DNA of 64,000 nt from positions 481 through 64,480 of the forward strand of contig CAJFQQ010000007.1 in the NCBI GenBank assembly GCA_904419145.1. The letters are read 5' to 3'. Shown here in pieces: positions 32,936 to 53,911 of the stretch (positions within the stretch are counted from its first letter, which is position 1; each line of letters opens with the position of its first letter). This DNA comes from an uncultured Oscillospiraceae bacterium. Its GTDB lineage: Bacteria; Bacillota; Clostridia; Oscillospirales; Oscillospiraceae. The notes below the pieces were generated by a model that was not told where the DNA came from, searched no databases, and worked only from the letters and a program-made list of their open reading frames with translations. A program made the position numbers and the translations under genes.

Positions 32936-33072
32936 GCTTTGGACATGCAGCTTCAAGACGATTTTTCCATATGGCCGGCCTCCCGCGGACGCCCAATGAT
33001 ACCATGGCGTACCGGCTGGAGGCCGGCCGTTTTTGTACTCCTGGACAGGCGGGCGGGGGCAGGCCGATATCC

Positions 33073-33101
33073 TTGACAGCATCTGCTTGCTTTTATATAA
33101 T
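33073..33101 (+). promoter_or_regulatory. perfect sigma-70 consensus promoter TTGACA-17-TATAAT
   Basis: Hexamers at 33073-33078 and 33096-33101. The kinase ATG (33107) lies only 6 nt after the -10 box. Confidence 0.6.
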
Positions 33102-33106
33102 ATATT

Positions 33107-35212
33107 ATGTCGAATGTCGGGCAGATTTGGCTAGCCCGTACAGTGCGAGAGAGGTGGAGCGGCTTGGTAGAATATTCCGTATCTGTACTCGGTCCGGACT
33201 ACGATCAGGTGTCATTGATGTCCACTGGCGGTATGGGAGAGCTCTTCCGTGCCCATAAGCGCGGCTTGGATGTGGACGTGGTGGTCAAGCGTGTACAGAC
33301 GCAATATCGCGGCAGGATCAACGAGGCCAGAGAGGCCAATATTCTGAAAAATCTCCGCCACCAGTTTCTGCCCCGGATTTACGACATCATCTATGCCGCA
33401 GATGGGTTTGTATATACCGTCATGGATTATATCCCGGGCTGCAATCTGCAGGAATATGTGGAGAAATATGGCGCGCTTTCCCAAAAGCAGAGCCTGAAGT
33501 GGCTGAAACAGCTGTGCGAGGTCGTGACTTACCTCCATCAGCAGAAGCCGGCGGTGATCCATTGCGATATCAAGCCTCAGAACATTATGATTACGCCGGA
33601 TGGGGATATCTGCCTGATTGACTTCAATACCTCGCTGATTTTTGAGGATGCGGAAATGAACGCCCTGGGGGTGACCCACGGGTATGCTGCGCCGGAGCAG
33701 TACAATGTGTCTCAGGCAGTTCTGGAGCGTGTTCCCCAGCAGGCGCGCACCCGCTGGGCGGCCTGGAGCAAAGCGGCCTCACCTTATGGCAGGATTTCAG
33801 AGCGTACGGATATTTACGGCATCGGCGCAGTGGGGTATTTTATGCTCACCGGCTACGCACCCGCCCACAGCTTGGGAACCGTGATCCCCCTGTCCCGGTA
33901 CAATATCAAGCTGACGGATGCGCTGCGGGATGTGCTGGAGCGGGCCATGTCCCCGGCGTCCAGGGCGCGCTTCCCCAGTGCGCAGGCCATGCGCGCTGCA
34001 CTGGATCATCTGAAAAAAGCGGATCGGCGCTATCGCAGCTGGCGCAGGCGCTGTCAGATTTGTGCTGTGGCGCTGGGATCTTTGGCGTTGGTAAGCGTGT
34101 TTTGCATCTGGATGGGCTTTGAACTGCGCGGGCAGGAAGCGGGAGACGCCTATCTTCAGGTCATCACTCAAGCTGACGAACTGATCGCCCAGCAGCAGTA
34201 TGAGGAGAGCCTGGATGTGCTGGGTGGTGCTGTTGCCATGGATGACCACCGAATTGAAGCATATATCCGTATGGCCACAGTGCTCTACCGTTTGGGACGG
34301 TATAATGAGTGCATTGATCTGCTGTCCGGCCTCACTTTTGTTTATGATGAGAATGTAATGACCCAGGAGGCATTTGATTTTGCCCAGGCTGAACTGAATT
34401 ACGTTCTGGGCTCCTGCTATTTTCAGGAGGAGGAATACGTGGAGGCGGTTCAAACCCTGGAGCTGGCGGCCTGGTTTGCCCCCCAAGAACCACTTTACCG
34501 CCGAGACCTGGCGATAGCCCAGGCGATGCGCGGCAATCTGGAGGAGGCGGAGGAGACCTATGAAGCATTGAAGGCTATGGGAACAGCCAGCCAGGAGGAT
34601 TTGCTGCTGGTAGAGGGGGAACTGGCTTATGCCAACGGGCGGTATGAGGAGGCACTGACGCCGCTATTGCAGCTGGCACGTGGGCAGGATAATACCTTGA
34701 CGGGCAGAAGTTACCTGCTGGCAGCCCAATGTTACCGCTATCTTGGGGAACTTGACCAGGAAATCGGAATTTTGGAGGAGGCGTGTGCGGTATTGGATGT
34801 GTCCGCCAGTACAACTCACACGGAACTTCTGGCGGAAGCATACCTGCAACGGGGGATTGCCAACAGCTCCATGGAGGATTATGAACAGGCATATGAGCTG
34901 TGCAGCGGCCTGATGGAGCGCGGGACGGCAACCCTGTCCGTTCGGTTGAATGCCGGATTGGCCCTGCAGTATCTGGGGCGGGTCCAGGAGGCTCTGGAGA
35001 TCGTGGAGGCAGTGACAGCGGACTACCCCAACAACTATCGGGGATACGCCCGGTTGGCGCTGCTCTGCCTGGACAGTCAGGTAAACGATTACGCGAGGGC
35101 GCAGGCAGCCTATGAGCAGGCTGCGGCCCTCTACAGCGGTACTGGCGTGCAGGACGGTGAAATGACCTATTTGGCATCGCTGATGCGGGATCTGGGGCTT
35201 GCTTCAAACTGA
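33107..35212 (+). CDS. membrane Ser/Thr protein kinase with extracytoplasmic TPR repeats
   Basis: Hanks motifs are present: STGGMGELF, VVVKRV, HCDIKPQN, DFN, YAAPEQ. One TM segment (ICAVALGSLALVSVFCIWMGF) is followed by about 350 aa of TPR-like repeats. An alternative TTG start at 33164 has a GAGGTGGAG SD. Confidence 0.85.
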   Translation: MSNVGQIWLARTVRERWSGLVEYSVSVLGPDYDQVSLMSTGGMGELFRAHKRGLDVDVVVKRVQTQYRGRINEAREANILKNLRHQFLPRIYDIIYAADGFVYTVMDYIPGCNLQEYVEKYGALSQKQSLKWLKQLCEVVTYLHQQKPAVIHCDIKPQNIMITPDGDICLIDFNTSLIFEDAEMNALGVTHGYAAPEQYNVSQAVLERVPQQARTRWAAWSKAASPYGRISERTDIYGIGAVGYFMLTGYAPAHSLGTVIPLSRYNIKLTDALRDVLERAMSPASRARFPSAQAMRAALDHLKKADRRYRSWRRRCQICAVALGSLALVSVFCIWMGFELRGQEAGDAYLQVITQADELIAQQQYEESLDVLGGAVAMDDHRIEAYIRMATVLYRLGRYNECIDLLSGLTFVYDENVMTQEAFDFAQAELNYVLGSCYFQEEEYVEAVQTLELAAWFAPQEPLYRRDLAIAQAMRGNLEEAEETYEALKAMGTASQEDLLLVEGELAYANGRYEEALTPLLQLARGQDNTLTGRSYLLAAQCYRYLGELDQEIGILEEACAVLDVSASTTHTELLAEAYLQRGIANSSMEDYEQAYELCSGLMERGTATLSVRLNAGLALQYLGRVQEALEIVEAVTADYPNNYRGYARLALLCLDSQVNDYARAQAAYEQAAALYSGTGVQDGEMTYLASLMRDLGLASN

Positions 35213-35230: not shown

Positions 35231-35368
35231 ATGGGAAATATTTTAATTATTGTAGGCATTGCGGGCCTGCTCCTGACGGCGGTGGCAGCACCCATTGCGG
35301 CCATGGTGCTGCGCAGGCAGGCGAAGCAGCTGAGTGAGCGTATTCAGCAGGAGTACGATCAAACATAG
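35231..35368 (+). CDS. small (45 aa) single-TM protein
   Basis: Below the ORF-track cutoff. My translation is MGNILIIVGIAGLLLTAVAAPIAAMVLRRQAKQLSERIQQEYDQT. A GAGGAGG SD lies upstream. It sits between the kinase and the next gene. Confidence 0.4.
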   Translation: MGNILIIVGIAGLLLTAVAAPIAAMVLRRQAKQLSERIQQEYDQT

Positions 35369-35396
35369 AACCACAAATGAAAAAGCTTAGGAGGGA

Positions 35397-35783
35397 ATGT
35401 ATATGAAATTTGAGCAGGTATGTCAAACGGCGCTAGCATATTTTCAGCAGCATCCAGTATTCAAGATTCTCCTTCCCATTTCCATGCCGTTGATGCTGGT
35501 CTGCGTAGTACTGCGGCTGGTGCAGAACTTGGTCAGCTTGGGCAGTTTTGTTTCAGCGCTGATCTTTTTCGCCTTCCTTTTGATGCTGTTTTTAACGGTA
35601 GCCCAATGCAACTTCCGCATGGCGGCAGTAGGGCTGGCCGGCTTTGCGCTGGATTATCTCCTGTCATTTGTGGTCAGCCTCATCCGCTACCACAGCCTGG
35701 CTTACGGTACACTGCTCTATCTGGTGGTATATGGGGGCCTGGCGTTTCTCAGCTATAAGAAGTCCATGACCTTTAATTGCTAA
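35397..35783 (+). CDS. hypothetical 4-TM membrane protein
   Basis: 128 aa with four hydrophobic segments and an AGGAGG SD. No family recognised. Confidence 0.55.
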   Translation: MYMKFEQVCQTALAYFQQHPVFKILLPISMPLMLVCVVLRLVQNLVSLGSFVSALIFFAFLLMLFLTVAQCNFRMAAVGLAGFALDYLLSFVVSLIRYHSLAYGTLLYLVVYGGLAFLSYKKSMTFNC

Positions 35784-35824
35784 GGGAACGACAAATTTTA
35801 ATCAGACACAAGGAGTGTAGAAAA

Positions 35825-36280
35825 ATGGGTTGGGGAGACAAACTGAATCAAATAACGAAGTCCGCGGTTTCCAAAAGCAAAGAGATGGCAGAAATTACCC
35901 GGCTGAACATGGAAAACAGCAGCAGCGAACAGAAAATCAAGGAACTGGCTGTCCAGATCGGCACATTGGTGGTGGATCAACAGCTGCTGATGGACAATGT
36001 CCAGGTTGCCGAGTGGGCCGCCCAGATCGCGAAACTGAGGGAGGCCGTCGCCAAGAACCAGGAGACCATTCGTGAGATTCGAAACATCAATATCTGTTCC
36101 AACTGTGGTGCTGAGGTATCACGTACCAGCAAGTTCTGCGATAAATGCGGCAGTCCCATGGATCGGTCGGTTCTGGAGGAGTCCATGGCCGCCGCGGTTC
36201 CCACCTGTCCTAATTGCGGTGAGCGGCTGGAGCCCGGCGCGCTGTTCTGCACTAATTGTGGGACAAAGGTTTCCAGCTGA
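35825..36280 (+). CDS. double zinc-ribbon protein with N-terminal coiled coil
   Basis: Start taken at ATG 35825 (AAGGAG SD). Two zinc ribbons: CSNCGAEV...FCDKCGSPM and CPNCGERL...FCTNCGTKV. Confidence 0.7.
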   Translation: MGWGDKLNQITKSAVSKSKEMAEITRLNMENSSSEQKIKELAVQIGTLVVDQQLLMDNVQVAEWAAQIAKLREAVAKNQETIREIRNINICSNCGAEVSRTSKFCDKCGSPMDRSVLEESMAAAVPTCPNCGERLEPGALFCTNCGTKVSS

Positions 36281-36339
36281 ATACAACCATAGAAAGGCCG
36301 GCTGGATCAGTCGGCCTTTTTTCAGGAGGAGGGAGAACA

Positions 36340-37131
36340 ATGAAACGAAAGCTGTTTGCTGCTGTGCTGGTGCTGGCGCTGCTTGTGTCAGGCTATACCC
36401 TCTATGCCTATCTCTCTACTCGGGGGCTGCGGGTCTATCTTATGGGCACACAGATGGGGGCTGTCCTGGCCGGGAGCTGGCAATTCACCTTCCTGGCAGC
36501 TGTAGTGCTGTGGAGCCCGGGCGTTGTGGCGCTGGTCCGGAAGGCGGCCGGGCTGCGGGGGCGCAAGATGGCTCCCGGGCAGGCTGAGGACGCTACAGAA
36601 ATCTTGCAGCAGGGGGGGATGGAGGCAACAGAGCGCCTCGAACCGCGAAAAGGGGAGGCGGATGCTGCTGGAAACCGGGGCATACGGAAACGCAAAAAGG
36701 CAGCGCAGGCGCTGCGTGAAACTGCTGCAGCGACAGAGCCGGATGGAGGGAGCAATGGCCCCCTGGCGCCCACAGAGCTGTTGGAGCCGCGGCGCGGCAG
36801 TGTGGAGGCGACAGAGATTTTGGAGCCTGATGGGGATGGAGAGCTCCCGCTGACGCCGCCGGGAACGGCAGGTACGCCTTCGGAATCTGAAAAGGGATCC
36901 GACATGTCGGAAATTGGTGCGGCAACAGAGCTGATGGAGGAGCCGCCTGCGCGGGAACCTATGCCCGAGGAGAAGGGGGAAGCCATACCATTCCCCGCCG
37001 GCCAGGTCTATCAGGGGGAGAAAATAACGGCCGCCCCGCCCCGGCCGACGGCTCCGCGGCTCTGCCCCCACTGCGGGCACCCGGTTACGGGAAGGTTCTG
37101 TGCCAAATGCGGTGCAAAAGTGGGTGAATAA
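36340..37131 (+). CDS. 2-TM protein with cytoplasmic (A/P)TExLEP repeats and C-terminal zinc ribbon
   Basis: Start taken at ATG 36340 (GGGAGA SD). The MKRK N-terminus is followed by two hydrophobic segments and a repeat region. C-terminal zinc ribbon CPHCGHPVTGRFCAKCGAKV. Confidence 0.65.
   Translation: MKRKLFAAVLVLALLVSGYTLYAYLSTRGLRVYLMGTQMGAVLAGSWQFTFLAAVVLWSPGVVALVRKAAGLRGRKMAPGQAEDATEILQQGGMEATERLEPRKGEADAAGNRGIRKRKKAAQALRETAAATEPDGGSNGPLAPTELLEPRRGSVEATEILEPDGDGELPLTPPGTAGTPSESEKGSDMSEIGAATELMEEPPAREPMPEEKGEAIPFPAGQVYQGEKITAAPPRPTAPRLCPHCGHPVTGRFCAKCGAKVGE
36592..36945 (+). repeat. intragenic degenerate repeats encoding (A/P)-T-E-x-L/M-E-P
   Basis: DATEILQQ, EATERLEP, AATEPDGG, APTELLEP, EATEILEP and AATELMEE. 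The nucleotide core is ACAGAG-N4/5-TGGAGCC. Confidence 0.7.
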
Positions 37132-37137
37132 GGAGGG

Positions 37138-39936
37138 ATGGCCATGATTATAGCAGCTGTGGCGGCGGCTGCCGGCTTACTGGGATGTGTACTGGCAGTG
37201 CTGCTGCTTTGGAAAAAGAAACTGTCCAAAACATGGGGGATTTCTCTGCTGGCCTGTGCTTTGGTTATAGCTGGCGCAGGAGGGATCGGGGTTGTCCGAC
37301 AGATTCAGAACCGGGCAGAGGAATACGGAAACATTTATTTGGCCCTGTGCTATCTGGAGCGAGGGCAGACAGACCCTGCCGCACTGTATTTAAAGCGGGT
37401 AACCAATCAAACAGGGTACCATTTAACTGCGGCACAGACGCTGCTGGAGCAGATGCGGGGCAATAACACGGTAGCCAAGCTGCGGCTGGATGTGCTGGAA
37501 CATATCCAGGATGGCAGTGAGGATCAAAGCGGCGGGATCGAGCGGCTGCGCAGCTGGCAGCAGATGGATGACGGCCTACGGATCGTGACAACAGCTCTGC
37601 AGGAACAACTGCCGCTGTCCAGCGGCCGGCGGGAAGAATTGGACCGCTTGTTTTCCCTGGAGACGGGCGGCTGGTACGAAGATGCCCCTGAAGATCTGTC
37701 CGATGCCCTGCTGCTGCAGATCAATCAGGCTCTAGGCGCAGAGGACTGGTATAGTGCGCTGAACGGAGCTGTCCAGCTCGTGTGGGAGGATGCATCCGTC
37801 TCCAATCGCCTGTTGCTGGCGGAAGTCATTGCAGATGTGACATATAGCGGCATGTCCCTCAGTACGGCAGAGTTTTCTGCCGGAGAGCCGTCCGACACCG
37901 ACACCCAGGCCCGGGAGTCCGAGAAGCTGATGGAGCAGTATGCTGATTTGATGGATGAGCTGGCGGTGCTGGAGCAGAAGATGACAGCGGCGGGTGAGGA
38001 GGAACAGGCGGAGCTGGCGGAACAGAGCGCCGCCCTGACGGAGGAGGCAGAGGAGGCCCAGCGCCGGGCGGAGAATATTTTTGCCCTGCGGGCGCTGAAC
38101 TCTATTGCTGATATCCACTCCCTTGAGGCGCAGGTGGTGCGGGCCCGCTTGTACTACGCCATGCGCAGCTATCAGGAGGCGGTGGATACCCTCCGCGGCG
38201 CGGCAGCGTCCGTTCAGGCTGTGCTGTCCGGGAATCAATCCCTTGTAAGTGGGCTGCAGCTTGTGAATCAGATCTATGAGACGGAGGGCGAGGCTGGGGT
38301 CGATACCCCGGAATTCCGGGAGGAGTTGCAGGTCCTGTTTGGCAGTGTGCACCCCAATTTGATTTATCTTGGCCTCACCCCATTAGCCACAGATTTTGCT
38401 GAGCGGATTATCAGCGATCAAAAGACTTACGGCGCGGGATTGTACATTGTGAATTTGGACGCCAGCCAGTACCCACAGGTCCGGGTGCGCCTGGGCGGAC
38501 AGGCAGCGGTTGTGGAGTCCATTGTGAATAGAGATCTGGTTGTGGTAAAAGACACCCGGGAAGTGGTAGATACCTATGAGGTGAGCACGGATACCACCTC
38601 CGAGAGCCTGAACAGCATTTGCTTTGTAGTGGATACCAGCGGAAGCATGAATGGCTATCCCATTGAGGACGCCAAAGAAGCGCTGGACCAGTTCCTTGGC
38701 GATCTGACGGGAAACGCGGAGCTGGCACTGGTCAAATTTGAATCCGGGGCGGAGACATTGGTGGGCATGACGGCCAGCGTGAGTGCCCTTAAAACAGCGG
38801 TCGGCAGCCTGGCCGCCGGCGGCGGCACAGATATCACCGCCGGTATCCAAGAAGGAACTGCAGCTCTGGACAGCGCCAGCGGCGCCCGCACCATGATTGT
38901 GATGACAGATGGTCAGAGCGATGTGGACTTGAGCGTAGTGCAGGCTGCAGCGGATCAGGGGATTACTATTTTTACGATAGGGTTCGGCGATGTAAATGAT
39001 GATCTGCTCCAGACCATTGCAGACATGAGCGGCGGGCAGTATCTTCGGGCTGATTCTTCCACGGAGCTGATGAACGTCTACAGCAGCCTTCAGGGGATTA
39101 TCGGGAATACGGTTACCTTGACATACACGGTGGAGGACACGGCGGAAGAAGAACGATACTTTTTCCTGATGGACGAGAATCGCAATCTGAGCGTGCGCAG
39201 GGAATACTATGTGGGAGAGGAGGAGTGGATCACAGAGGAACCGGCAGTAGCGCTGACCAGTGTCCCAGTGATGACGACGCGCACCTATTTGGACCGCCTC
39301 GCCCAACAGCAGGATGGTACCTTCCGCGCCTCCTACAGCGGCATGGGGCTGGATACTGTGGCATCGGCCTATGTGGGGGATCAGGCCTGCATCATTGCCG
39401 GACAGAGTGAAAGTTCCCTGCAGCTGGATGTATCGGCGCAGCTTCCCAACGGCATGTATGAAATTCGGCTGGAAACCCAGGATGGCATTGTATACAGCTT
39501 TCCGAATATGTTGGTCATCGGCGACCAATTGAACTGCCGTAACTACCGGGCAGGCAGCCTGCAGATCTCCACCGCCCAGGCGCTGTGGCTGGACAACACC
39601 CTTGTACTGGGGAACCGCTTGGAGATGAGGGAGCTGCCGGCCGATGACGGGACAGTCAACACGCTGGATCTCCAGTTGGACGGTGTGCTGGTGTTCCCGG
39701 GGGACAGCCTTCCGGCAGGGGTGATCGGAGCGGATGGGACGGTCCAACAGGATCTGCCGGATCAGATTGATCTGGGCGGCACCGGATCCAGTCAGGGACG
39801 CGGAACCCTACGGATCAACCGGGGGGATAAAGCGTATGCGGATTCGGTTGATACCATAATCCTGAGGGATGCGATTTTGCTGGAGTATGACACAGAAAAT
39901 AGCCGGTTTGTTGCCGGAGAGGAGGTGGCACAATGA
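37138..39936 (+). CDS. large membrane-anchored vWA-domain protein
   Basis: 932 aa. Two N-terminal TM segments and a long helical region. The vWA domain has an intact MIDAS (FVVDTSGSMNG...GGGTDI...VMTDGQSD). The C-terminus is beta-rich. Confidence 0.8.
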   Translation: MAMIIAAVAAAAGLLGCVLAVLLLWKKKLSKTWGISLLACALVIAGAGGIGVVRQIQNRAEEYGNIYLALCYLERGQTDPAALYLKRVTNQTGYHLTAAQTLLEQMRGNNTVAKLRLDVLEHIQDGSEDQSGGIERLRSWQQMDDGLRIVTTALQEQLPLSSGRREELDRLFSLETGGWYEDAPEDLSDALLLQINQALGAEDWYSALNGAVQLVWEDASVSNRLLLAEVIADVTYSGMSLSTAEFSAGEPSDTDTQARESEKLMEQYADLMDELAVLEQKMTAAGEEEQAELAEQSAALTEEAEEAQRRAENIFALRALNSIADIHSLEAQVVRARLYYAMRSYQEAVDTLRGAAASVQAVLSGNQSLVSGLQLVNQIYETEGEAGVDTPEFREELQVLFGSVHPNLIYLGLTPLATDFAERIISDQKTYGAGLYIVNLDASQYPQVRVRLGGQAAVVESIVNRDLVVVKDTREVVDTYEVSTDTTSESLNSICFVVDTSGSMNGYPIEDAKEALDQFLGDLTGNAELALVKFESGAETLVGMTASVSALKTAVGSLAAGGGTDITAGIQEGTAALDSASGARTMIVMTDGQSDVDLSVVQAAADQGITIFTIGFGDVNDDLLQTIADMSGGQYLRADSSTELMNVYSSLQGIIGNTVTLTYTVEDTAEEERYFFLMDENRNLSVRREYYVGEEEWITEEPAVALTSVPVMTTRTYLDRLAQQQDGTFRASYSGMGLDTVASAYVGDQACIIAGQSESSLQLDVSAQLPNGMYEIRLETQDGIVYSFPNMLVIGDQLNCRNYRAGSLQISTAQALWLDNTLVLGNRLEMRELPADDGTVNTLDLQLDGVLVFPGDSLPAGVIGADGTVQQDLPDQIDLGGTGSSQGRGTLRINRGDKAYADSVDTIILRDAILLEYDTENSRFVAGEEVAQ

Positions 39937-41267
39937 AGCTGCGGATCAAAAAACTGCCGATTCTGCTGCCGCTCCTCCTGGTGGCTGTGGCTTTGATTGC
40001 TGCAGCGGTAATGGCCCGCCTGAGCTGGGACAGTGCGGCAGCTCACACGGATTTGGGACAGAAATATCTGAATGATATGGATTATACCGGCGCTGTCACA
40101 GAGTTTTTGCAGAGCCTGTCCATGGATCCCACCGACCAGGAGGCCCGGTTGGGATTGGCGGAGGCATACGCGGCCTCCGGCAGCGCGGAAATAGTGCCGG
40201 AAATCCTGGAACCGCTTACTGAGGCCCAGTCTCCAGAGGCCTGCCGCCTGCTGATCGAAAGCCTGCGGGGCAGTGATTTGCACCGGGCACTGCTGGTGGC
40301 GCAGGAGCTGGCAGAGCACACAGACAGTGATGAGGATTATGCGCTCCGTGATGAGCTGCTGGGACAGGTATTGCTGGAGGCTCATACCTATGCGGTAGGC
40401 GAGGATCAGCGGCTCATGGTGGATGAGGGGGCGGTCCTCTCCTCTGGCAGCAATACATTTGGCCAGCTGGGAACCGGGCAGGGGCTCGCAACAGAGGCTG
40501 TGCAGGATGGATTTCAGTCCGCTCAGTTTTCTGGGCAGGCAGCCCGTGTCTATTGTGCGGGCCGTACCAGCTATGTGGTGGATCAGAGCGGCAATCTCTG
40601 GGCAGCTGGGGAGAACCGCTGGGGGCAGCTTGGAATGGACTATGCCTCAGCAGACCCCCAGAGTGGGTGGTTTCAAATTGTGGACAGCGGCGATGTGGCT
40701 GCGGTGGCAGGAACAGTCGGGATGCTGTATGTGCTGAAAACGGATGGCAGCCTCTGGTATGCCGGCCAGGGCGGTGTTATGGAGCTTCGGCAGATCCGGG
40801 ATTTTGGAGAGGTTGCCGCAGTGGAGTCCGGAGAGCGGCAGACGGCGGTCCTGACAGCCGACGGCCTGCTCTATGTGAGTGATACTGAGGATCCGCTGCG
40901 CTGGACACGGCAGGCGAGCGGGGTAAAGCTTTTCTGCTTTGGCGGCAGCGGACTGGTCTGGGTGACCGCAGAAAATCAGATCGGTTTTTCGTCGTCTGTA
41001 CCGCAGCTGCCGGATACATGGGTGCAGAATGGCGGAAGTACCACTCCGGATTTTGCGGTCTGTGATATCGCTGCTGATTCTGACGGGCTCCTTCTGCTGG
41101 ATGCCGCTGGGCAGCTGCATCGGGTCTATAATGGCCAAGTGGCGGAAGTGGATGGCCTGACAGCGGTTAATATCTACTCCACCGGCGGCACGGTAGTTGT
41201 GGAGCAGGAGGGCGGCGGAGCGATGCTTTGGACGCTCAGCGCTCCGACGCCCACGGCTGCAGCGTGA
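39933..41267 (+). CDS. signal-anchored TPR + RCC1-repeat (beta-propeller) protein
   Basis: 444 aa. ATGA overlap with the upstream gene. N-terminal anchor LPILLPLLLVAVALIAAAV. RCC1-like repeats GSNTFGQLGTG and GENRWGQLGMD. Confidence 0.75.
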   Translation: MKLRIKKLPILLPLLLVAVALIAAAVMARLSWDSAAAHTDLGQKYLNDMDYTGAVTEFLQSLSMDPTDQEARLGLAEAYAASGSAEIVPEILEPLTEAQSPEACRLLIESLRGSDLHRALLVAQELAEHTDSDEDYALRDELLGQVLLEAHTYAVGEDQRLMVDEGAVLSSGSNTFGQLGTGQGLATEAVQDGFQSAQFSGQAARVYCAGRTSYVVDQSGNLWAAGENRWGQLGMDYASADPQSGWFQIVDSGDVAAVAGTVGMLYVLKTDGSLWYAGQGGVMELRQIRDFGEVAAVESGERQTAVLTADGLLYVSDTEDPLRWTRQASGVKLFCFGGSGLVWVTAENQIGFSSSVPQLPDTWVQNGGSTTPDFAVCDIAADSDGLLLLDAAGQLHRVYNGQVAEVDGLTAVNIYSTGGTVVVEQEGGGAMLWTLSAPTPTAAA

Positions 41268-41325: not shown

Positions 41326-41376
41326 ATCCCCCAAAGCGGCGCGCTGACTCTGCGCCGCTTTGGGGGATATTTTTAT
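41326..41376 (+). terminator. strong intrinsic terminator
   Basis: 17-bp perfect stem ATCCCCCAAAGCGGCGC / GCGCCGCTTTGGGGGAT followed by ATTTTTAT. Confidence 0.85.
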
Positions 41377-41416: not shown

Positions 41417-41445
41417 TTGACAATTATAGCCCTTTTTCCTATAAT
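41417..41445 (+). promoter_or_regulatory. perfect sigma-70 consensus promoter TTGACA-17-TATAAT
   Basis: Hexamers at 41417-41422 and 41440-41445, followed by a roughly 190-nt leader before the first T7SS-unit gene. Confidence 0.65.
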
Positions 41446-41633: not shown

Positions 41634-42938
41634 ATGGCAAAGATACAGATTGAGCCGGTGAGGGCAAAGAGCGCGTTGAACCTGGAGGATGCGCTGGAAC
41701 AGGCGCTGCGTTCCATGTCCAATGAGGTGGATGGGGTTCGAAGCGGCCTGCGTTATAAAATTTCAGGCCAGGAGCAGATTGCGGCGCGCCTCAAAGACGT
41801 GGTGGAGCAGTTGGCCAAGGAGGCAAACGCCACTGGCGCTATGCGGGACGGGCTGGAGCAGATCATTGCGCGGTATGAGCAGGCCGAGAGCAGCAACCGG
41901 GAGCGCACCGTGGCAGATGGGACCACCATACAGCAGGGCGCAGATGGCAGCAGCGGGGCGGGAACGGGGACGGATATCTGGGATCGCTTCAAGGAGGCAT
42001 TGGAAGTCCTGCTCGATCCCGAAGAGGCCGGCCGTTTGCCCGGGCCCATCAGTGCTGCTGTACCGTGGCTCATACAGCCGTTCTACCAGTTCACCGAAAA
42101 TGACGGGGAAGCGGACAATCCCTGGTTCAAAATAAAGGGAGAACTCGACAACAAGCACGAGGGCGAGGGAGAGCTCTGGGACTATGAAAAAAAGAAAGAT
42201 GTCGAAGATTTTCCCTATCAGAAGCACTACTATAAGGATGTGGAAACCGGCGAGATTATAGAGGTGGATCCCAATGGGAAAGAGGACATGGAAGCCCTTA
42301 AGAAGCACAGCAAGGGCACAATCCCCGTTGATCTGACCGTAGCAGGGATCGGCGTCTCCGGCAGTGCAGCGATTTTTGACAATGATTTTGGCGGGAAATA
42401 CGATTGGGGCGGACATGAAGGGAATGTCTCGGTTGGAAAGATCGAGGGCCATGCGGATGCTTACCTGGGCGCGCTGGCCATAGGCGCTGAGGTCGGCGCC
42501 AGTATCACAGCGTTTTCTGCCAAAGAAAAAGCATACTTGGGGACAGAAGACTTCAACCTTTATGGGGAAGCCAGCGTGACAGCAGGCCGGGCCGAGGCAA
42601 AGGCCGGTGCCAGTGCAGGGCTTTTGGATAAGGAGGGGAATTTTAATCCAAGCGCATATGTCGGCGCCTCGGCAGAGGCGATTGCTGGCGAGATTACCGG
42701 AAAGGCCGGTGTGGATATTGCCGGCGTAGATGTAGGCGTGGAGGGGAGCCTGAACGTTGGCGTAGGCGCCCACGCCAACGTGGGGCTGCATGACGGCAAG
42801 CTCAGTGTGGACATTGGCGCTTCACTGGGGGTCGGCGCCAGCATCAAGCTGGAAGTAGATGTGTCAGGTGCAATTGATGCTATGGCGGATACAGCGGACG
42901 CCATCTGGTCCGGCGTTACAAATTTGTTCAACTGGTAA
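41634..42938 (+). CDS. putative T7SS substrate/effector: N-terminal WXG100-like helical hairpin with YxxxE, C-terminal Gly/Ala-rich repeat domain
   Basis: 434 aa. The first about 90 aa are helical and end in ARYEQAES. The C-terminal 150 aa contain repeated (V/I)GAS and GxxxG-type segments (KAGASAGLL, YVGASAEAIAGEITGKAG, GVGAHANVG, DIGASLGVGASIKLE). It is followed by DUF4176 genes. Confidence 0.55.
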   Translation: MAKIQIEPVRAKSALNLEDALEQALRSMSNEVDGVRSGLRYKISGQEQIAARLKDVVEQLAKEANATGAMRDGLEQIIARYEQAESSNRERTVADGTTIQQGADGSSGAGTGTDIWDRFKEALEVLLDPEEAGRLPGPISAAVPWLIQPFYQFTENDGEADNPWFKIKGELDNKHEGEGELWDYEKKKDVEDFPYQKHYYKDVETGEIIEVDPNGKEDMEALKKHSKGTIPVDLTVAGIGVSGSAAIFDNDFGGKYDWGGHEGNVSVGKIEGHADAYLGALAIGAEVGASITAFSAKEKAYLGTEDFNLYGEASVTAGRAEAKAGASAGLLDKEGNFNPSAYVGASAEAIAGEITGKAGVDIAGVDVGVEGSLNVGVGAHANVGLHDGKLSVDIGASLGVGASIKLEVDVSGAIDAMADTADAIWSGVTNLFNW

Positions 42939-45180: not shown

Positions 45181-45762
45181 GTGCGTTCTGCGTTGTTGCA
45201 GTTTCTACAGACCAATTGGTATTTTTGGGTGATCCCCCTGCTTTTGATCGTGGGCATACCCATCATTGCACGGCGGCGAAGGACAAGGCGGGAGTGGGAG
45301 GAGATGTCTCAGCGCAAACGGAGGGATGAGGCACTCAATGAGGCGCTGCGTAACCCGCACCTGGAGCGCGACAACAGCGGGCCTGAGCGGCCAATGGCGA
45401 TCAGCTGGGAGGATCGGGCTGTCAACGAGAAAAAGAAACGGGATAATTCTCCGCTGGTGGAGCTGGTGCTGCTGTCGGAGTATTCCCACAGGAAGTATGT
45501 CTACCGACTGGATCAGCCCATTCGGATTGGAAGCGGGGTGGACAACCAGATGGAACTCCACTGGGAGGGTGTGGCACCCCGGCACTGCGAGATTTTCCTC
45601 AACCAGGAGAAGCCCTGCGTCCGGAGCCTGATGGGCGCAGAGACGTGCCTGATAAGGGGGAAGGCCTCGGCTCCGGTAGGGAGTGGAGGCGTCTATCTAA
45701 ATAATGGGGACTATATCCGCCTGGGGGCGGCTGAGGTTCAGTTCCGCATGCTCAAGGGCTGA
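45181..45762 (+). CDS. single-TM protein with degenerate FHA domain
   Basis: 193 aa. The start is uncertain (GTG 45181 or TTG 45193/45196). TM segment WYFWVIPLLLIVGIPII. The C-terminal FHA-like fold (PIRIGSG...PRHCEI...YLNNGDYIRLG) lacks the canonical GR / SxxH / NG residues. Confidence 0.7.
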   Translation: MRSALLQFLQTNWYFWVIPLLLIVGIPIIARRRRTRREWEEMSQRKRRDEALNEALRNPHLERDNSGPERPMAISWEDRAVNEKKKRDNSPLVELVLLSEYSHRKYVYRLDQPIRIGSGVDNQMELHWEGVAPRHCEIFLNQEKPCVRSLMGAETCLIRGKASAPVGSGGVYLNNGDYIRLGAAEVQFRMLKG

Positions 45763-45839
45763 CCGCCGGATGGCTGACCGGGGCGGTGCCGGGGATACAC
45801 CGCAGAGAAAAGGGAACATCGGGGGGAGGATGGAACCGC

Positions 45840-48800
45840 ATGAGCATGGTACTTTCCATCTATAGTCAGAAGGGGTTTCGGGAGGTCACGCTGCCTGAGC
45901 GTGGGCAGCAGGCCCTGGAGGTACTGATTGAAAGGGAGCTCTTTGCATTGGATCAGGATCTCACGCTATCCTTGGCACAGGAGGATGGCCTGTGGGTGCT
46001 GCGTACCCAGGATGGCCTGCTGTCTATGTCCGGAGGGGAGCGGCCCGTTTCTGTCGCCATAACGGACGGCGCTCACTTCCAGGTGGAGACGCCGCAGGGC
46101 GGTCGGATCACCGTAATCAGTTTTGAACAGACCAATCCCTTCACGGTGTACCGCAAATATGCCCTGGCAGGCCTGCAGCAGATTAAAATTGGCCGGGGGA
46201 GCGGGAACGATATCTGTTATCAAAATGATTTCGTCTCCCATGAGCACTGTACCATTACCCTGCAGGGCGGCAGCGCCATACTGCACGATACTTCCAGCAA
46301 CGGCACATTCATTAACTTCCAGCGTGTGTCCGGCAGTACCGTGCTGCACTATGGCGACAGCATCCGAATTATGCGCCTTAATCTTATTTTCCTGGGCAAC
46401 ATGATTGCTATTGATGACTGTGACAACTTGACCATGAGGCTCCCGCAGCTTGGAAGCGAAGAAATTGCGCACCTCGCCGCGAATGCCCATGGGACAGGTT
46501 TGCGCCGGATCCTGTTCCACCGTTCACCGCGCAATCTCCGAAAGCTGCGTACGGAGGCCTTTGAAATCGAGGCGCCGCCTAGCCCTGCGGATCAGAAGGA
46601 GGCATCTCTGGCGATGGCCATCGGTCCGGCGCTGACGATGGCGATCCCCATGTTGTTGGGGAGCGGACTGTCTGTTCTGACCAGCCAGAGCGGTGGCGGA
46701 TTCATGTATGTGGGCCTGATTACAGCTGGTGCCTCGGCAATCATTGGCGCGGTGTGGGCGTTTGTCAATGTGCGCAGCGCCAGCAAGGCCCGTAAGCAGG
46801 AGGAGAATCGCCGCTTCGAGCGCTACAGCGAGTATCTCATCCAGATGCGCGACAGCATAGAAGCGGATTACAATAAAAATGCGGAGTCCCTGCGAGAACG
46901 GTATCTCAGTGCGGGGGAGTGCTGTGCCTTGAATGAGCATTCCCCTCTTCTGTGGAACCGGAATGACTCCTATGATGATTTCCTCAGTGTTCGGATCGGA
47001 ATAGGCGATGTGCCTTTTCAGGCACCTATCAATATCCCCAGGGAGCGGTTTACTCTGGTCAGCGACTCTCTGGCAGACAAACCCAAGGTGATCCGGGACA
47101 ACTTCAGCACACTGAAGGACGTCCCAGTGACAGTGGACCTTTTGACGCGCCGGCTGGTCGGACTTGCGGGCGGAGGCAGCAGGAAGAACGCTATCGCTGT
47201 TGCAAAGGCGATGATTGCTCAGATTGCCGTGGCCAACAGCTACACAGATGTCAAGATTGCTGTAGTTTATGATGGGACCAGCGATATCGACCGCGAGGCA
47301 TGGAAGTTTGCCCTGTGGCTGCCCCACGTCTGGTCCAGCGACAAGAAGATCCGGTATATTGCAACCACCCCATCCGAGAGGGCGGATGTGTTCCATGCGC
47401 TGGCACAGGTCCTGCGAAACCGCAGCGAGGAGGACGAGAAGGAGGGGCGGAACATCAAGCCGCGCTTTGTCCTGTTTGTCTCCAATCCGGCTCTGTTGGA
47501 CGGAGAGGGTGTGTCCCGCTATGTGTTTGGCCGGGAAATGGATCTTGGGCTCTCCACAATCCTGCTGGCATCCCGGCCGGAGGAGCTGCCCAATGAGTGT
47601 GAATATATTGTAGAGGACAGCGGCAATTATCAGGGGATCTATGATACCAGAGAGGGCCGCGATGCTGGAACATTGGTGAAGTATGACCGGGTTTCTGATG
47701 AGCTGCTCTGGACACTTTCCAAAAATTTGAGCCGGGTTGAGGTAGTGGAGGCGGAGCAGGATGGAGAGATTCCCAGCACGCTGACCTTTTTTGACATGTT
47801 CGGTGTAGAGCGCCCACAGGAGCTGGAAGCTGCGGAGCGCTGGAAAAAAGCGGATACCATTACCAGCATGAAGGCGCTGGTAGGATTTCGCAGCGGGAAT
47901 ACCCCGTGCTATCTGGACATCCATGAGCGTTACCATGGTCCCCACGGTTTGGTGGCAGGCACCACGGGCTCCGGAAAATCGGAGACCCTGCAGACCTATA
48001 TTCTTTCCCTGGCGGTGAATTTCAGCCCTGAGGATGTAGGTTTCTTTATCATTGACTACAAGGGCGGCGGCATGGCCAATTTGTTTGACGGTTTGCCCCA
48101 CATGATCGGCTCCATCTCCAACCTCTCTGGAAACCAGGTCAAACGGGCTATGGTATCCATTCAGGCAGAGAACCGACGCCGTCAGCGGATCTTCGCGGAC
48201 TATGGGGTCAACAATATCAACGGTTATACAGCCCTCTACAAAAACGGAGACACTTCCGAGCCGATCCCCCACCTGTTTATTATCATTGATGAGTTTGCTG
48301 AGCTCAAGCGGGAGGAATCGGAGTTCATGAAGGAGCTCATCAGCGTGGCTCAGGTAGGGCGCAGTCTGGGGGTTCATCTGATCCTCTCCACCCAGCGCCC
48401 CTCGGGCACAGTAGACGAGAATATCTGGGCCAACAGCAAGTTCCGCCTGTGTCTGCGGGTGCAGGACCGCCAGGACTCCATGGATATGCTCCACCGCCCG
48501 GAGGCGGCCTATCTGACTCAGGCTGGCCGCTGCTATCTCCAGGTGGGCAACGATGAAATCTTTGAGCTGTTCCAGAGCGGCTGGTCCGGCGCCACCTATG
48601 ACGAGGAGCTGGGCGGAGGAAGCCTGCTGATTGCCCAGATGCTCAGTGCGACCGGCAAAGTGGATCTGGCGGGGAACCACGCGAAGATCAAGCGGAAGGA
48701 GGAGATCAAACGGCGGTGGGTGACGCAGCTGGTGAATATCCTCCAGCAGACAGAGGAGGAAACAGGGATCTCTGCTCTGGCCTCAGGATTCCACTTCGAA

Positions 48801-50804: not shown

Positions 50805-50820
50805 TGGAAAGGCGGAGGCA

Positions 50821-51537
50821 ATGATTGCGATTCTTGTCTGTGACAGAGATGAGCGGGAGCGGGAAACGATTGGCACAGACTGCCGCAGGCGCATTGCGGT
50901 GGGCTGCGACGAGGCGCTGGAACTCACCGGCGCATCGGATGACGCGGAGCTCCTTTTGGTTGCGGAAGACGAGCGCTTGGTTCATCTGTTATACTATGAT
51001 TACCAGGCTGGCCAGCAAATGGAGGGACTGCGCCTGTTCCGCAGACGCTGCAGCGGCGCAATGGTTATGCTGATTACCGATGCTTCGGTTTCCCCACTGG
51101 AATATTTGCGCCCCGGAACAGCCCCTGATGCGCTGTTGCTGCGGCCGCTGAACGAGGAAATGTTAGATGCGGTCAATGGGGAGTTCATGGACAGTTTCTT
51201 CCAGCGGTTTCATGGCGGGAAAGCCGACGACAGCTTTGTGGTGGACACCCGGGAGGAAAAGGTGTTTCTTCCCTATTCCCAGATCTACTACTTTGAGGCC
51301 CGGGATAAAAAGCTGTTTGTCCGCACAAAAAATGAAGAGTACGCCTTCTATGATACCATAGAGGGATTGGAGCGTCGGCTCCCAAGCGCTTTCCGCCGCT
51401 GTCACCGGAGCTATATTGTCAATACAGAAAAAATCCAGCGGATCCTTTCGGCGGAAAATTTTATCGACCTGGGGAACCAGATCGGAGCCCCGATATCCAG
51501 AAGCTATAAAGGGGCATTCAAGGGAGTGGGGACATGA
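50821..51537 (+). CDS. receiver-like domain + LytTR DNA-binding domain regulator (orphan)
   Basis: 238 aa. The C-terminal LPYSQIYYFEARDKKLFVRTKNEEYAFYDTIEGLERRLP..FRRCHRSYIVN is a LytTR domain. The N-terminus has a CheY-like pattern (ILVCDRDE, YYDY, LITDAS, LLLRPL). Confidence 0.8.
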   Translation: MIAILVCDRDERERETIGTDCRRRIAVGCDEALELTGASDDAELLLVAEDERLVHLLYYDYQAGQQMEGLRLFRRRCSGAMVMLITDASVSPLEYLRPGTAPDALLLRPLNEEMLDAVNGEFMDSFFQRFHGGKADDSFVVDTREEKVFLPYSQIYYFEARDKKLFVRTKNEEYAFYDTIEGLERRLPSAFRRCHRSYIVNTEKIQRILSAENFIDLGNQIGAPISRSYKGAFKGVGT

Positions 51538-52196
51538 GAGCGGGCGAGCTGATGTATTTTACACCGGCGGAGCTTATTGTGATGATGGAGCTGGCCGACG
51601 GCGGGGCGTACTCCATGATCCGGTGGGATGCGCAGCCGGATGACATCGGCCTGGTGCAGGCACTGGCCAGTCTGTTTCAGCGGGGATTGATCCTCCGGGA
51701 AGGGGATAGATTGGCGCTGAGCGCGAAGGGGCGACCCTTTTCCGGCATGAAACAGGCCGGCACCGCACTGCTGCTGTCCGCCATGCCGTCAGGGCGAGTG
51801 GTTGTGTGCTATGTAGGGAAAGACGCGATTTGGCTGGTGGAGCCGGTGGATGAGGTTCTCACCCAGCGGTTTCGGCTGCAGCAGATAGAACGGGCAGCGA
51901 TCCGCGATTGGCTGACAGAGGCGGAATTTCTGGAATTCCCTCTCCTACACGACGCGGATGCCGCCGAACTAAGCCGACTGTTCGAGGATGAGCTCAGTGA
52001 GCCATCCGGTAGTGTGCACCTCCGCTTGGAGCGGTATGTCAACGGTGGCCCTCTGCTGTGCACATATGAGGTGACGGAAGGACGGGGCGGACGTCTGGTG
52101 ACCCGTCGGGACGACCAGGGCTGCGCCGCGGAAATTTACACGGATGAGGCGCTGTCGCGGATGCTGACGGAATGTTTTGGGGAGGAGCCGATATGA
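51534..52196 (+). CDS. hypothetical protein (T7SS-locus specific, no family recognised)
   Basis: 220 aa. ATGA-coupled to both neighbours. Soluble and acidic. Confidence 0.5.
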   Translation: MRAGELMYFTPAELIVMMELADGGAYSMIRWDAQPDDIGLVQALASLFQRGLILREGDRLALSAKGRPFSGMKQAGTALLLSAMPSGRVVVCYVGKDAIWLVEPVDEVLTQRFRLQQIERAAIRDWLTEAEFLEFPLLHDADAAELSRLFEDELSEPSGSVHLRLERYVNGGPLLCTYEVTEGRGGRLVTRRDDQGCAAEIYTDEALSRMLTECFGEEPI

Positions 52197-52441
52197 TTAT
52201 TGTCAATATTCATGCCCCCGCACTGGAAACGGTATATAATTTCTCTCTGGAGGAGACGGCAAAAATCGGCGATCTAATGGAGGAAATCGTGGAATTGATT
52301 GCCCAAAAGGAACATGTCCCCTTTGGCGGGGGCCTGGAGGAGATGGTACTGTGCTCAGTGGAGAACGGGGAGCAGTTTGATAAAAGCCGCTGCCTGGCTG
52401 ACTACGGTATTTCTGGTGGTGCGGAACTGATTTTGGTTTAG
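52193..52441 (+). CDS. yukD: YukD/EsaB-like ubiquitin-fold T7SS protein
   Basis: 82 aa from ATG 52193 (GGGGAGGAG SD). The C-terminus QFDKSRCLADYGISGGAELILV parallels the B. subtilis YukD end (...CKLSDCGITNGDRLEIL). Confidence 0.75.
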   Translation: MIIVNIHAPALETVYNFSLEETAKIGDLMEEIVELIAQKEHVPFGGGLEEMVLCSVENGEQFDKSRCLADYGISGGAELILV

Positions 52442-53599: not shown

Positions 53600-53911
53600 A
53601 TGGCAAGTTTATCGGAAATCTATTTTAACTATAACCAGGCCATGGAGCAGGCCAAACAGCTGGATGAGATTGCCGTACGGCTGACCAATGCAGCCAACAA
53701 GGACATGGAGGATCTCTTAAACGATGTAAACAGCGCATGGAAAAGCGACAGCGCCCCACAGTACATTCGAAAGGGCCGAAAAGTCGGAGACGACATGCGG
53801 ACCACGTCGGGGAACCTCAAAAACATTGCCGCAGCGATCCGCACCATTGCCAAGCGGATTCTGGAGGCGGAGCTTGAGGCGTGGAGGATTGCAAATGAGC
53901 GCAGGAGCTGA
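53600..53911 (+). CDS. WXG100-like small helical protein (degenerate motif W-K-S)
   Basis: 103 aa from ATG 53600 (GGGAGGGA SD). SAWKSDSAPQY lies at the hairpin turn. No YxxxE. Confidence 0.55.
   Translation: MASLSEIYFNYNQAMEQAKQLDEIAVRLTNAANKDMEDLLNDVNSAWKSDSAPQYIRKGRKVGDDMRTTSGNLKNIAAAIRTIAKRILEAELEAWRIANERRS

Follow-up and report, generated by a model that had tools for sequence, protein, structure and literature searches.

Several type VII secretion system (T7SS) variants, namely T7SSc, e, f and j, are predicted to encode sets of a kinase, a PPM phosphatase and FHA proteins, and control by phosphorylation has been proposed for them (Garrett, Higginson & Palmer 2024, Microlife uqae013, PMC11217815). 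The EssC protein of the canonical T7SSb has lost the FHA residues that bind phosphothreonine (pThr), whereas T7SSd, e and j keep them; TsjD of T7SSj has a TPR ectodomain, and T7SSi has a LytTR regulator, TsiN (PMC11217815). In the type VI secretion system (T6SS) of Agrobacterium, as cited in PMC11217815, PpkA phosphorylates Thr on the membrane component TssL, which then binds Fha, activating secretion. Here we analysed a 64,000-nt stretch of DNA (the window) from an uncultured Oscillospiraceae bacterium (contig CAJFQQ010000007.1), in which a Ser/Thr kinase gene and the six + strand genes 3′ of it, named g1 to g6, stand beside a T7SS island. Window positions are those of the whole stretch. Our preferred reading, held with about even confidence and drawn from sequence and predicted structure, is that the kinase and the six genes would form a portable envelope-spanning Ser/Thr-kinase cassette, which would license an adjacent export machine by docking of FHA domains to pThr.

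Judged by published descriptions, the locus resembles T7SS variants c to j, with their accessory components TsxD, TsxF, TsxJ, TsxK and TsxH, in several respects. It encodes a membrane-bound Ser/Thr kinase whose active site is conserved and which carries a helical or TPR domain outside the cell, together with a PPM/PP2C phosphatase and an FHA protein of its own; its EssC has an FHA domain that keeps the pThr-binding residues; and EssA, EssB and EsaA are lacking. Two further counterparts are possible: by description, g4 (two transmembrane (TM) helices, zinc ribbon, disordered linker) may be set beside TsxK, a single-TM zinc-ribbon protein whose cytoplasmic part is unstructured, and g1 (45 aa, one TM helix) beside the small single-TM TsxH. 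In contrast, the ~930-aa vWA, RCC1 propeller, four-TM and DZR coiled-coil proteins are not described in those variants. The FHA partner in the window is a vWA-TM-FHA protein, unlike the DUF6382-FHA protein (TsxJ) of the variants; neither the latter nor the large Ig-like TsxI was found in the window. Oscillospiraceae are absent from the text and the consulted supplements of PMC11217815. That paper was the only related account retrieved by a full-text literature search, in which a vWA/RCC1/kinase cassette was not described. That T7SS variants carry genes for a kinase, a phosphatase, FHA proteins and zinc-ribbon proteins has been published before (PMC11217815). New relative to that paper and to the full-text searches are the vWA/RCC1 pair, the microprotein, the DZR and four-TM partners, a repeat array of Thr with a hydrophobic residue at +3 (TxxPhi), and the use of one cassette by both T7SS and Tad loci.

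We liken the proposed mechanism to the threonine phosphorylation pathway of the T6SS in logic, not in homology; it also agrees with the control suggested by Garrett et al. for T7SSc, e, f and j. The part that we propose for g4 is the one played in Agrobacterium by the phosphorylated membrane component. The PpkA-PppA-Fha1 and TagQRST proteins of Pseudomonas aeruginosa likewise bring together a Hanks kinase, an extracytoplasmic vWA domain, a PP2C phosphatase, an FHA reader and, upstream of the kinase, accessory envelope proteins. In PpkA the vWA domain is fused to the kinase. In the cassette, by contrast, vWA domains lie on separate polypeptides (g5 and the vWA-TM-FHA protein), a multi-copy repeat array takes the place of a single docking site, the machines are T7SS and Tad rather than T6SS, and the hosts are monoderm Clostridia; sequence orthology is absent.

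The kinase operon

The operon contains the following features.

33073 to 33101, + strand: perfect sigma-70-type promoter (TTGACA-17-TATAAT), preceding the kinase gene
33107 to 35212, + strand: Ser/Thr kinase, 701 aa (Pfam Pkinase, 2.5e-30)
35231 to 35368, + strand: g1, single-TM microprotein of 45 aa
35403 (or 35397) to 35783, + strand: g2, 126 aa, four TM helices, no family match
35825 (ATG) to 36280, + strand: g3, 151 aa, soluble coiled coil with two zinc ribbons (Pfam DZR, 5e-13)
about 36297 to 36322, + strand: terminator-like hairpin with T6 between g3 and g4 (dG -22.4 kcal/mol)
36340 (ATG) to 37131, + strand: g4, 263 aa, two TM helices, linker and C-terminal zinc ribbon
37138 (likelier ATG 37144) to 39936, + strand: g5, 930 to 932 aa, two N-terminal TM helices (VWA, 1.6e-22)
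39933 to 41267, + strand: g6, 444 aa, N-terminal signal anchor, TPR, RCC1-like
41326 to 41376, + strand: strong intrinsic terminator (18-bp stem, 41326 to 41368, and T-tract; dG -37.2 kcal/mol)

The original prediction, made from the sequence without database searches, placed six consecutive + strand genes between the kinase stop and the terminator, and all of these ORFs and the terminator were confirmed. The intergenic gaps from the kinase to g5 are 18, 34, 41, 59 and 6 nt, and g5 and g6 share an ATGA overlap, in agreement with the minimal spacing described. The topologies and domains then assigned to the proteins fit ours, which were derived from hydropathy and the positive-inside rule and place vWA, TPR and RCC1 domains outside and zinc ribbons inside, as had been proposed; the upstream TTG starts of g3 and g4, however, were replaced by ATG codons supported by ribosome-binding sites (RBS), giving 151 and 263 aa. 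The g5 ORF has two in-frame ATGs, of which 37144 is better spaced from the AAGGAGG RBS and matches the 930-aa database representative P0001.

Within the operon, the hairpin between g3 and g4 may act as an attenuator or a partial terminator, and expression therefore need not be equal for all six genes. The RBS of g4 lies directly 3′ of this hairpin, and levels could differ between kinase-g1-g2-g3 and g4-g5-g6. An Rfam scan of the window revealed no RNA element inside the operon.

No NCBIfam model reached its cut-off on g1 to g6, and they have no curated names; only generic domains (zinc ribbon, vWA, TPR and RCC1) were recognised, and none of the cluster members examined for these families is named. 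The lack of an assigned function noted at the outset thus stands. A known anti-phage defence system was considered and rejected: PADLOC gave only generic kinase-domain matches (PD-T4-6, mad6), nothing for g2, g4, g5 and g6, a weak coiled-coil match of g3 (LmuB, 18 bits) and a weak match of the PP2C protein (PDC-M21C, 26 bits).

The kinase consists of a cytoplasmic kinase domain (aa 34-300), one TM helix (318-336) and an extracellular C-terminal TPR domain. The Hanks-type motifs GGxGxxF, VV[IV]K, H[CS]D[IL]KPxN, DFN and APE are kept in 21 orthologues and read GGMGELF, VVVK, HCDIKPQN, DFN and APE in the window (Pfam Pkinase, 106 bits). It is a non-RD kinase, in which Arg of HRD is replaced by Cys or Ser and Gly of DFG by Asn, with every catalytic residue kept. 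Unlike the EssB pseudokinase, it is predicted to be catalytically active.

Threonine repeats in the g4 linker

The g4 orthologues share a two-TM hairpin, a linker of variable length and a C-terminal CxxC...CxxC ribbon. AlphaFold modelled the hairpin and the ribbon of g4 with confidence and the linker between them as disordered, with a predicted local distance difference test score (pLDDT) of 41-60. In the window the ribbon is encoded at 37063-37110, and the linker carries five T-E-x-[LM] motifs, at T86, T97, T145, T158 and T196 (nt 36595-36936). The Thr-rich repeats originally ascribed to g4 were right in part: Thr makes up only 6.9% of the protein, but it sits in a repeated motif, the tandem E-E-T-E-L-L-E-P.

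In the linkers of 50 proteins of the g4 family, Thr is followed by a hydrophobic residue at +3 in 288 instances against 84 expected from shuffled linkers, a 3.4-fold enrichment, whereas the corresponding Ser motif is depleted (33 against 48 expected). The consensus around the motif is E-E-T-E-L-L-E-P-R-R. Repeat units vary by clade, including ETELLEPRRG, EETELIPPA, AATVLMPEA, ETEKMPE, GTAPMP, PTMPMP, KTEPIQP and PTEFIPAEP; constant in all of them are Thr (position 0) and one of the residues [LIMV] at +3. A group of near-identical g4 proteins (P0058-P0067; alignment A3, columns 150-225) differs only in the number of ETELLEPRRG copies, from 1 to 6, and these strain-to-strain differences indicate rapid expansion and contraction of the array.

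FHA domains take Thr specifically as the phosphorylated residue of their ligands and select at the pT+3 position. Bacterial Hanks kinases are reported to prefer acidic residues before Thr and a hydrophobic residue at +3, a preference that the g4 repeats resemble. The g4 linker motif thus has the predicted form of an FHA phospho-ligand, with Thr rather than Ser, Leu, Ile, Val or Met at +3, and a disordered setting.

Conservation of the cassette beside T7SS and Tad genes

About 185,000 species representatives, one genome per species, were scanned with two peptide patterns, which yielded 32 full-length loci. Carriers are Oscillibacter, Flavonifractor, Dysosmobacter, Gemmiger, Angelakisella, other Oscillospiraceae, Lachnospiraceae and metagenome-assembled genomes of Clostridia. 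Gene order is conserved across the 32 species-level loci, bearing out the earlier view of a kinase-led unit: g5 and g6 are adjacent in 29-32 of them, the kinase is upstream wherever the contig flank exists (21 loci), and g4 is present in 19. The core syntenic cassette consists of the kinase, the 45-aa microprotein, the two-TM zinc-ribbon protein g4, the ~930-aa vWA protein g5 and the TPR-RCC1 protein g6.

The g1 protein has a basic cytoplasmic tail ending in I-x-x-E-Y-[DE]. We take g1 to be a real gene, because a single-TM ORF of 42-60 aa with a g1-like tail follows the kinase directly in 18 of 20 loci; tblastn matches were obtained as well. The g2 gene is an accessory member, present in about 6-8 loci. 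The g3 gene occurs in at least 10 loci; its product has no TM helix and two CxxC...CxxC zinc ribbons, encoded at 36095-36148 and 36206-36259 (Zn_Ribbon_1, 3e-17).

Whether the six-gene set always travels with essC was checked in flanks of up to 10 kb, and it does not. T7SS genes (EssC, YukD, WXG100, LytTR) were found within this distance in about 8 of the 32 loci (L005, L006, L007, L010, L016, L021 and L031, with L008 probable). The cassette lies downstream of the T7SS genes in Oscillibacter valericigenes Sjm18-20 (L010) and upstream of them in the window, L016 and L072, the last of which has the window order with a different upstream neighbour. In about 7 of the 32 loci Tad-pilus genes stand within 10 kb in place of the T7SS. 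Loci with Tad genes are laid out as follows.

L069, all genes co-directional: tadA, tadB, tadC, small ORF, prepilin peptidase, TPR/WG-repeat, TadE-like, DUF5702, DUF6382/FHA, PP2C, kinase, g1, g2, g4, g5, g6, g3
L019 and L071 (Angelakisella): kinase, g1, g3, g4, g5, g6, three TPR/RHS-repeat lipoproteins, tadZ-like, tadA, tadB, tadC, flp, tadE, DUF5702
L020, L023, L027, L028, L029 and L032: portions of this Tad arrangement

Many genomes carry the cassette without a T7SS gene in the surrounding 10 kb, and at least 7 of them have it next to or inside a complete Tad locus, although a T7SS elsewhere in the Tad-type genomes is possible. FHA or PP2C genes, or both, recur beside the cassette in T7SS and Tad contexts alike. 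Linkage to T7SS genes and linkage to Tad genes each occur in several gene orders, which speaks for a functional connection with both machines and against a structural role specific to the T7SS. Since the same cassette serves Tad loci, this kinase set, at the least, is a portable module rather than part of the T7SS core. The Tad-like Kil machine of Myxococcus, which is rich in FHA proteins (PMC8460266), offers one more parallel to the proposed mechanism.

Beside the cassettes of L019 (14329-17507) and L026 (1451-7094) lie arrays of 3-5 paralogous membrane-anchored or lipoprotein genes, whose products have an N-terminal TPR region like that of g6 and variable C-terminal domains (RHS/YD-like, DUF2963 and others). 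One Tad locus (L070, 3393-5890) encodes a TadZ-like ATPase followed directly by a DUF6382-FHA protein and has no kinase cassette. Garrett et al. list DUF6382-FHA and TadZ-like proteins as the T7SSf components TsfJ and TsfV (PMC11217815); these may have a Tad-associated origin. A homology search with the DUF6382-FHA protein gave only 12 close relatives, among them no Clostridium T7SSj protein.

FHA proteins and phosphatase of the T7SS island

The T7SS island 3′ of the operon starts with a helical protein of 434 aa that is rich in Gly, a pair of DUF4176 proteins, a two-TM protein and two WXG100 genes; it continues with a TM protein whose FHA domain is degenerate, then EssC, a LytTR regulator, a protein of 220 aa and YukD (PF08817), and ends with more WXG100-like genes, a 517-aa vWA-TM-FHA protein and a PP2C phosphatase. 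Three of its genes concern the proposed signal.

45786 to 50804, + strand: EssC-type T7SS ATPase (NCBIfam TIGR03928, 1010 bits, cut-off 778; Pfam FHA, 1.1e-15)
53826 to 55379, + strand: vWA-TM-FHA protein, 517 aa (signal peptide, extracellular vWA with MIDAS DNSIS, TM helix, cytoplasmic FHA)
55376 to 56101, + strand: PP2C-type phosphatase (Pfam PP2C_2, 1.6e-8), at the right end of the island

The kinase operon and the PP2C gene stand at opposite ends and so bracket the island. The N-terminal FHA domain of EssC (aa 133-195) keeps the pThr-binding residues GR...SHEH...SSNG, and that of the vWA-TM-FHA protein is canonical (GR...SGTH...SSNG). Several partner FHA proteins in other loci also keep the canonical GR...SxxH...NG, as found with a strict regular expression that caught only a subset of the FHA genes. 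The vWA-TM-FHA gene recurs with the cassette in L005, L007, L008 and L026, and the PP2C gene recurs too. From these residues and positions, EssC and the vWA-TM-FHA protein are candidate readers of a phospho-signal, and the PP2C protein is the presumed reset enzyme. In the window the FHA partners are the vWA-TM-FHA protein and the TM protein with a degenerate FHA domain; in Tad-type loci the cassette is joined by the DUF6382-FHA protein.

Scanned against Pfam and NCBIfam, the kinase, g1 to g6 and the neighbouring T7SS ORFs gave no match for EssA, EssB/YukC or EsaA, in keeping with the missing membrane scaffold noted at first. The T7SS of the window is of the non-canonical kind described by Garrett et al. 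(2024). The EssC-LytTR-220-aa-YukD segment (45786-52441, + strand) resembles the T7SSi layout, in which a LytR-like TsiN stands beside TsiC and an EspG-like protein (PMC11217815); the window adds kinase, PP2C and FHA genes as in T7SSe and j, and may represent an undescribed arrangement. The LytTR regulator is found 3′ of essC in the window and in L006, L007, L010, L016 and L031.

Directly 5′ of essC, a 193-aa protein (45181-45762, + strand) combines a single TM helix with an FHA domain (Pfam, 1e-5) that lacks the canonical GR/SxxH/NG residues; this arrangement is kept in L016 and L072, and the protein is possibly a phospho-independent FHA adaptor. The 434-aa protein (41634-42938, + strand) has no family match; its N-terminal part is helical, and its C-terminal part is rich in Gly, Ala and Val and resembles a glycine zipper. 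Two DUF4176 genes follow it. Homologues occupy the same position in L008, L010 and L072, and the protein looks like a T7SS substrate or pore-forming toxin candidate. A second perfect promoter, 3′ of the operon terminator (41417-41445), belongs to this gene.

The ectodomain proteins g5 and g6

In the AlphaFold model of g5 (pLDDT 80), two TM helices are followed by a wholly helical region (aa 60-428) that is predicted to be extracellular, a small domain of beta structure, the vWA domain (492-654; nt ~38611-39099) and an Ig-like, beta-rich tail (658-926). The metal-ion-dependent adhesion site (MIDAS; DxSxS...T...D) residues D499, S501, S503, T564 and D591 are invariant in 24 sequences. The site is intact in sequence. 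A Foldseek search of the PDB with g5 gave vWA-domain matches only, including ITIH1, BatB (3ibs), ANTXR2, ArnB, PilB minor pilin and Mfa5. The g5 family is narrow and unnamed, with 36 clusters at 90% identity, all of 920-940 aa, and ~40 full-length representatives at 50% identity (1.84 billion proteins scanned by profile); 478 related vWA proteins were found at E<=1e-30.

Two described systems share parts with the cassette. In Sulfolobus, ArnA (zinc finger and FHA), ArnB (vWA) and the kinases ArnC and ArnD are similar parts controlling a type-IV-filament-like machine, the archaellum, and ArnB-type structures (8s05, 5a8j) are among the g5 fold matches, over the vWA domain only. The Arn proteins, however, are cytoplasmic and act on transcription or expression, whereas the vWA of the cassette is predicted to be extracellular and membrane-anchored. 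The Bat operon (BatA/BatB) of Bacteroides and Leptospira aerotolerance encodes membrane-anchored vWA proteins together with TPR proteins, and the vWA domain of g5 is structurally close to BatB (3ibs) and to an aerotolerance-related vWA protein of B. fragilis (4jdu). Unlike Bat operons, the cassette has no MoxR ATPase or DUF58, and g5 is 3-4 times longer, with its helical region and Ig-like tail; Bat operons in turn have no kinase, FHA and PP2C context.

The g6 gene always lies directly 3′ of g5. Its product scores 26.8 bits to PF00415 over the whole protein (cut-off 21.7), with no single repeat passing alone, and 52 bits to PF25390 (cut-off 150). RCC1-like domains of RPGR, RCC2 and HERC1 in the PDB were matched at 1e-8 to 1e-5, and the motifs GSNxxGQLG and GENRWGQ are conserved; by sequence, g6 is a candidate propeller protein. 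A common TPR handle joining the ectodomains of the kinase, g5 and g6 was considered and is not supported, since BLAST shows no significant mutual similarity. The TPR of g6, alone among the three, is similar to those found in the downstream TPR-RHS lipoproteins and in the TPR-LRR proteins.

Related cassettes with and without a kinase

An exhaustive profile search brought out two groups more distantly related to g5, with alignments covering most of its length, and three classes of cassette can be laid out as follows (members in parentheses within the gene order are those bracketed as accessory).

Class A (window, L004-L035): kinase, g1, (four-TM), (DZR), two-TM/TxxPhi/zinc-ribbon, vWA (~930 aa), TPR/RCC1
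Class B (L074, L075, L079): kinase (TPR), TPR/LRR protein, vWA (~700 aa), two-TM protein with T-V-L repeats
Class C (L073, L076, L078): (four-TM), DZR, (zinc ribbon), vWA (~1340 aa), Ig-like protein of ~500 aa, zinc-ribbon/TM

The anchor and TPR region of g6 matches the class B TPR-LRR protein at 2.3e-7. The g3 protein has a homologue in the kinase-less cassette L073 (31.5% identity, 2.4e-21), and the match between the g4 TM region and the class C zinc-ribbon/TM protein is weak (3e-5). From these comparisons the partner ectodomain appears to be swappable between classes (RCC1, LRR or Ig-like). The g4-like linkers of two class C cassettes hold 0-1 TxxPhi motifs; in the few cases looked at, the Thr repeats appear to go with the kinase.

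Class C neighbourhoods (L073, 8921-15918; L076, 10001-16175; L078, 2-8333) have no kinase, FHA, PP2C or secretion genes nearby. Their vWA protein carries TIG, the partner is Ig/cadherin-like, and the neighbours are ordinary metabolic genes. As these cassettes lack the kinase, the vWA/zinc-ribbon membrane complex would be older than its coupling to the kinase. In L075, of the LRR-type class B, an FHA protein is encoded upstream, and a PP2C protein and a TIR_2-FHA fusion (11362-12720, - strand) are encoded on the opposite strand beside the cassette; a kinase-cassette phospho-signal may also reach a TIR effector.

Upstream of the operon lie genes of molybdenum cofactor (Moco) biosynthesis (MoeA, MoaA, MoaB/E-like) and a VCA0040-like gene, closed 5′ of the kinase promoter by a terminator-like hairpin (33013-33029). 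The sole Rfam match in the window is a Moco riboswitch (RF01055; 26758-26892, + strand; 78 bits, gathering score 36), 5′ of the MoeA/MoaA/MoaB-E genes.

Discussion

The mechanism that we favour would run from the cell surface inward. Outside, the TPR ectodomain of the kinase, the vWA of g5 and the TPR-RCC1 propeller of g6 would together make up the receptor of a cue at the surface, for instance contact, damage to the envelope or a ligand. Inside, the non-RD kinase would phosphorylate the E-E-T-E-L-L-E-P repeats in the disordered g4 tail, and FHA domains of the adjacent machine would dock on the pT-x-x-hydrophobic sites so created, which would license assembly or firing of the machine. The readers would be EssC and the vWA-TM-FHA protein in this bacterium and the DUF6382-FHA protein of the Tad locus in other species, and the PP2C phosphatase would reset the switch. 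Two of the functions suggested beforehand, a trans-envelope sensory complex and a kinase-controlled surface apparatus, fit the data.

Several observations weigh against this mechanism. About half of the 32 loci have no T7SS or Tad genes; many of these end at contig borders, yet L004 and L009 have 7-10 kb of flank. The g4 orthologues of L016, L027 and L029 have few or zero TxxPhi motifs, and the enrichment of the motif counts tandem repeats and related sequences, which are not independent events. The motif is the sole ground for taking g4 as the kinase substrate, as the positive-inside rule is for placing g5 outside, and the TPR regions of the three ectodomains have no specific mutual similarity by BLAST. 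Finally, homologous kinase-less cassettes (DZR, vWA of ~1340 aa, Ig-like protein of ~500 aa, zinc-ribbon/TM) are found without FHA, PP2C or secretion genes nearby, which points to a kinase-independent function of the vWA/zinc-ribbon complex.

More tentatively, the cassette could be a plug-in contact or danger receptor for Gram-positive nanomachines, a monoderm counterpart of TagQRST-PpkA-Fha1. An extracellular complex, in which the vWA protein pairs with an exchangeable ligand-binding partner (RCC1, LRR or Ig-like), would activate the non-RD kinase, which would write a multivalent pT-x-x-L array on the g4 membrane scaffold. This array would recruit FHA outputs, namely the EssC ATPase, the Tad DUF6382-FHA protein and possibly a TIR-FHA effector.

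A doubtful explanation is that g1 to g6 build an autonomous surface apparatus, an adhesin or matrix-binding complex that the kinase merely tunes, and that adjacency to T7SS and Tad genes reflects co-regulated surface traits. The vWA (MIDAS), RCC1, LRR or Ig-like ectodomains would bind host, matrix or neighbour-cell ligands, and the zinc-ribbon proteins would anchor or organise them. The class C cassettes, which keep g3-, g4- and g5-like proteins and an Ig/cadherin-like partner without a kinase, agree with this, as do the swaps of partner ectodomain, such as are seen for ligand-binding modules, and the resemblance of the g5 vWA fold to the pilus-tip adhesins or receptors PilB minor pilin, Mfa5 and ANTXR2. 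However, no cell-wall anchoring motif or S-layer domain was seen in these proteins, and this reading would not account for the conserved Thr repeats in the g4 cytoplasmic tail, for the FHA and PP2C genes that recur beside the cassette or for the canonical FHA domain of EssC.

It is unlikely that the operon belongs to a PknB/StkP/IreK-type kinase pathway for general envelope stress or the cell wall, acting on growth or transcription, for example via the LytTR regulator, and not by docking directly to the machines. The kinase domain is nearest to PknB-type models (NCBIfam NF033483, 7e-35, far under its cut-off), and a LytTR gene follows essC in the window and five other loci; in Enterococcus, IreK activates T7SS transcription after phage-induced damage, as cited in PMC11217815. 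But the kinase has no PASTA domain, and the cassette is sporadic and island-like rather than housekeeping (32 of ~185,000 species representatives). Its tight linkage to FHA-bearing machine parts and to PP2C, and likewise the docking repeats of g4, speak for a local circuit that works post-translationally.

Highly improbable is the original prediction that these genes, notably g5, supply a structural T7SS scaffold or conduit in place of the missing EsaA, EssB and EssA, a role that the presence of EssC, YukD and several WXG100 genes without these three, the travel of cassette and T7SS genes as one island in L072 and L016, and a kinase topology equal to that of the EssB pseudokinase, as Garrett et al. 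observe for TscD (PMC11217815), could suggest, but which is not supported by the Tad loci without a T7SS gene within 10 kb (L019, L020, L023, L027, L029, L032, L069 and L071), by the kinase-less cassettes without secretion genes nearby, or by g5 itself, which has two N-terminal TM helices against the 1+5 of EsaA and a confident model that matches only vWA structures.

Non-canonical T7SSs and Tad pili are common in gut Clostridia (Oscillibacter, Flavonifractor, Gemmiger, Angelakisella), which are abundant but little-studied hosts. The licensing cassette that we favour offers a concrete circuit for them: a kinase, the multi-site motif EETELLEP, FHA readers, a phosphatase and two candidate receptor proteins. 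It is a first functional hypothesis for several nameless families. If true, it would account for the repeated kinase, phosphatase and FHA genes in T7SS variants, and one sensor design would be common to two unrelated export machines. If the plug-in receptor were also real, the kinase, phosphatase, FHA and zinc-ribbon "core components" of several T7SS variants would be a separable module common with Tad pili. The licensing circuit, if it holds, would provide a handle to trigger or block contact-dependent antagonism and adhesion in commensals.

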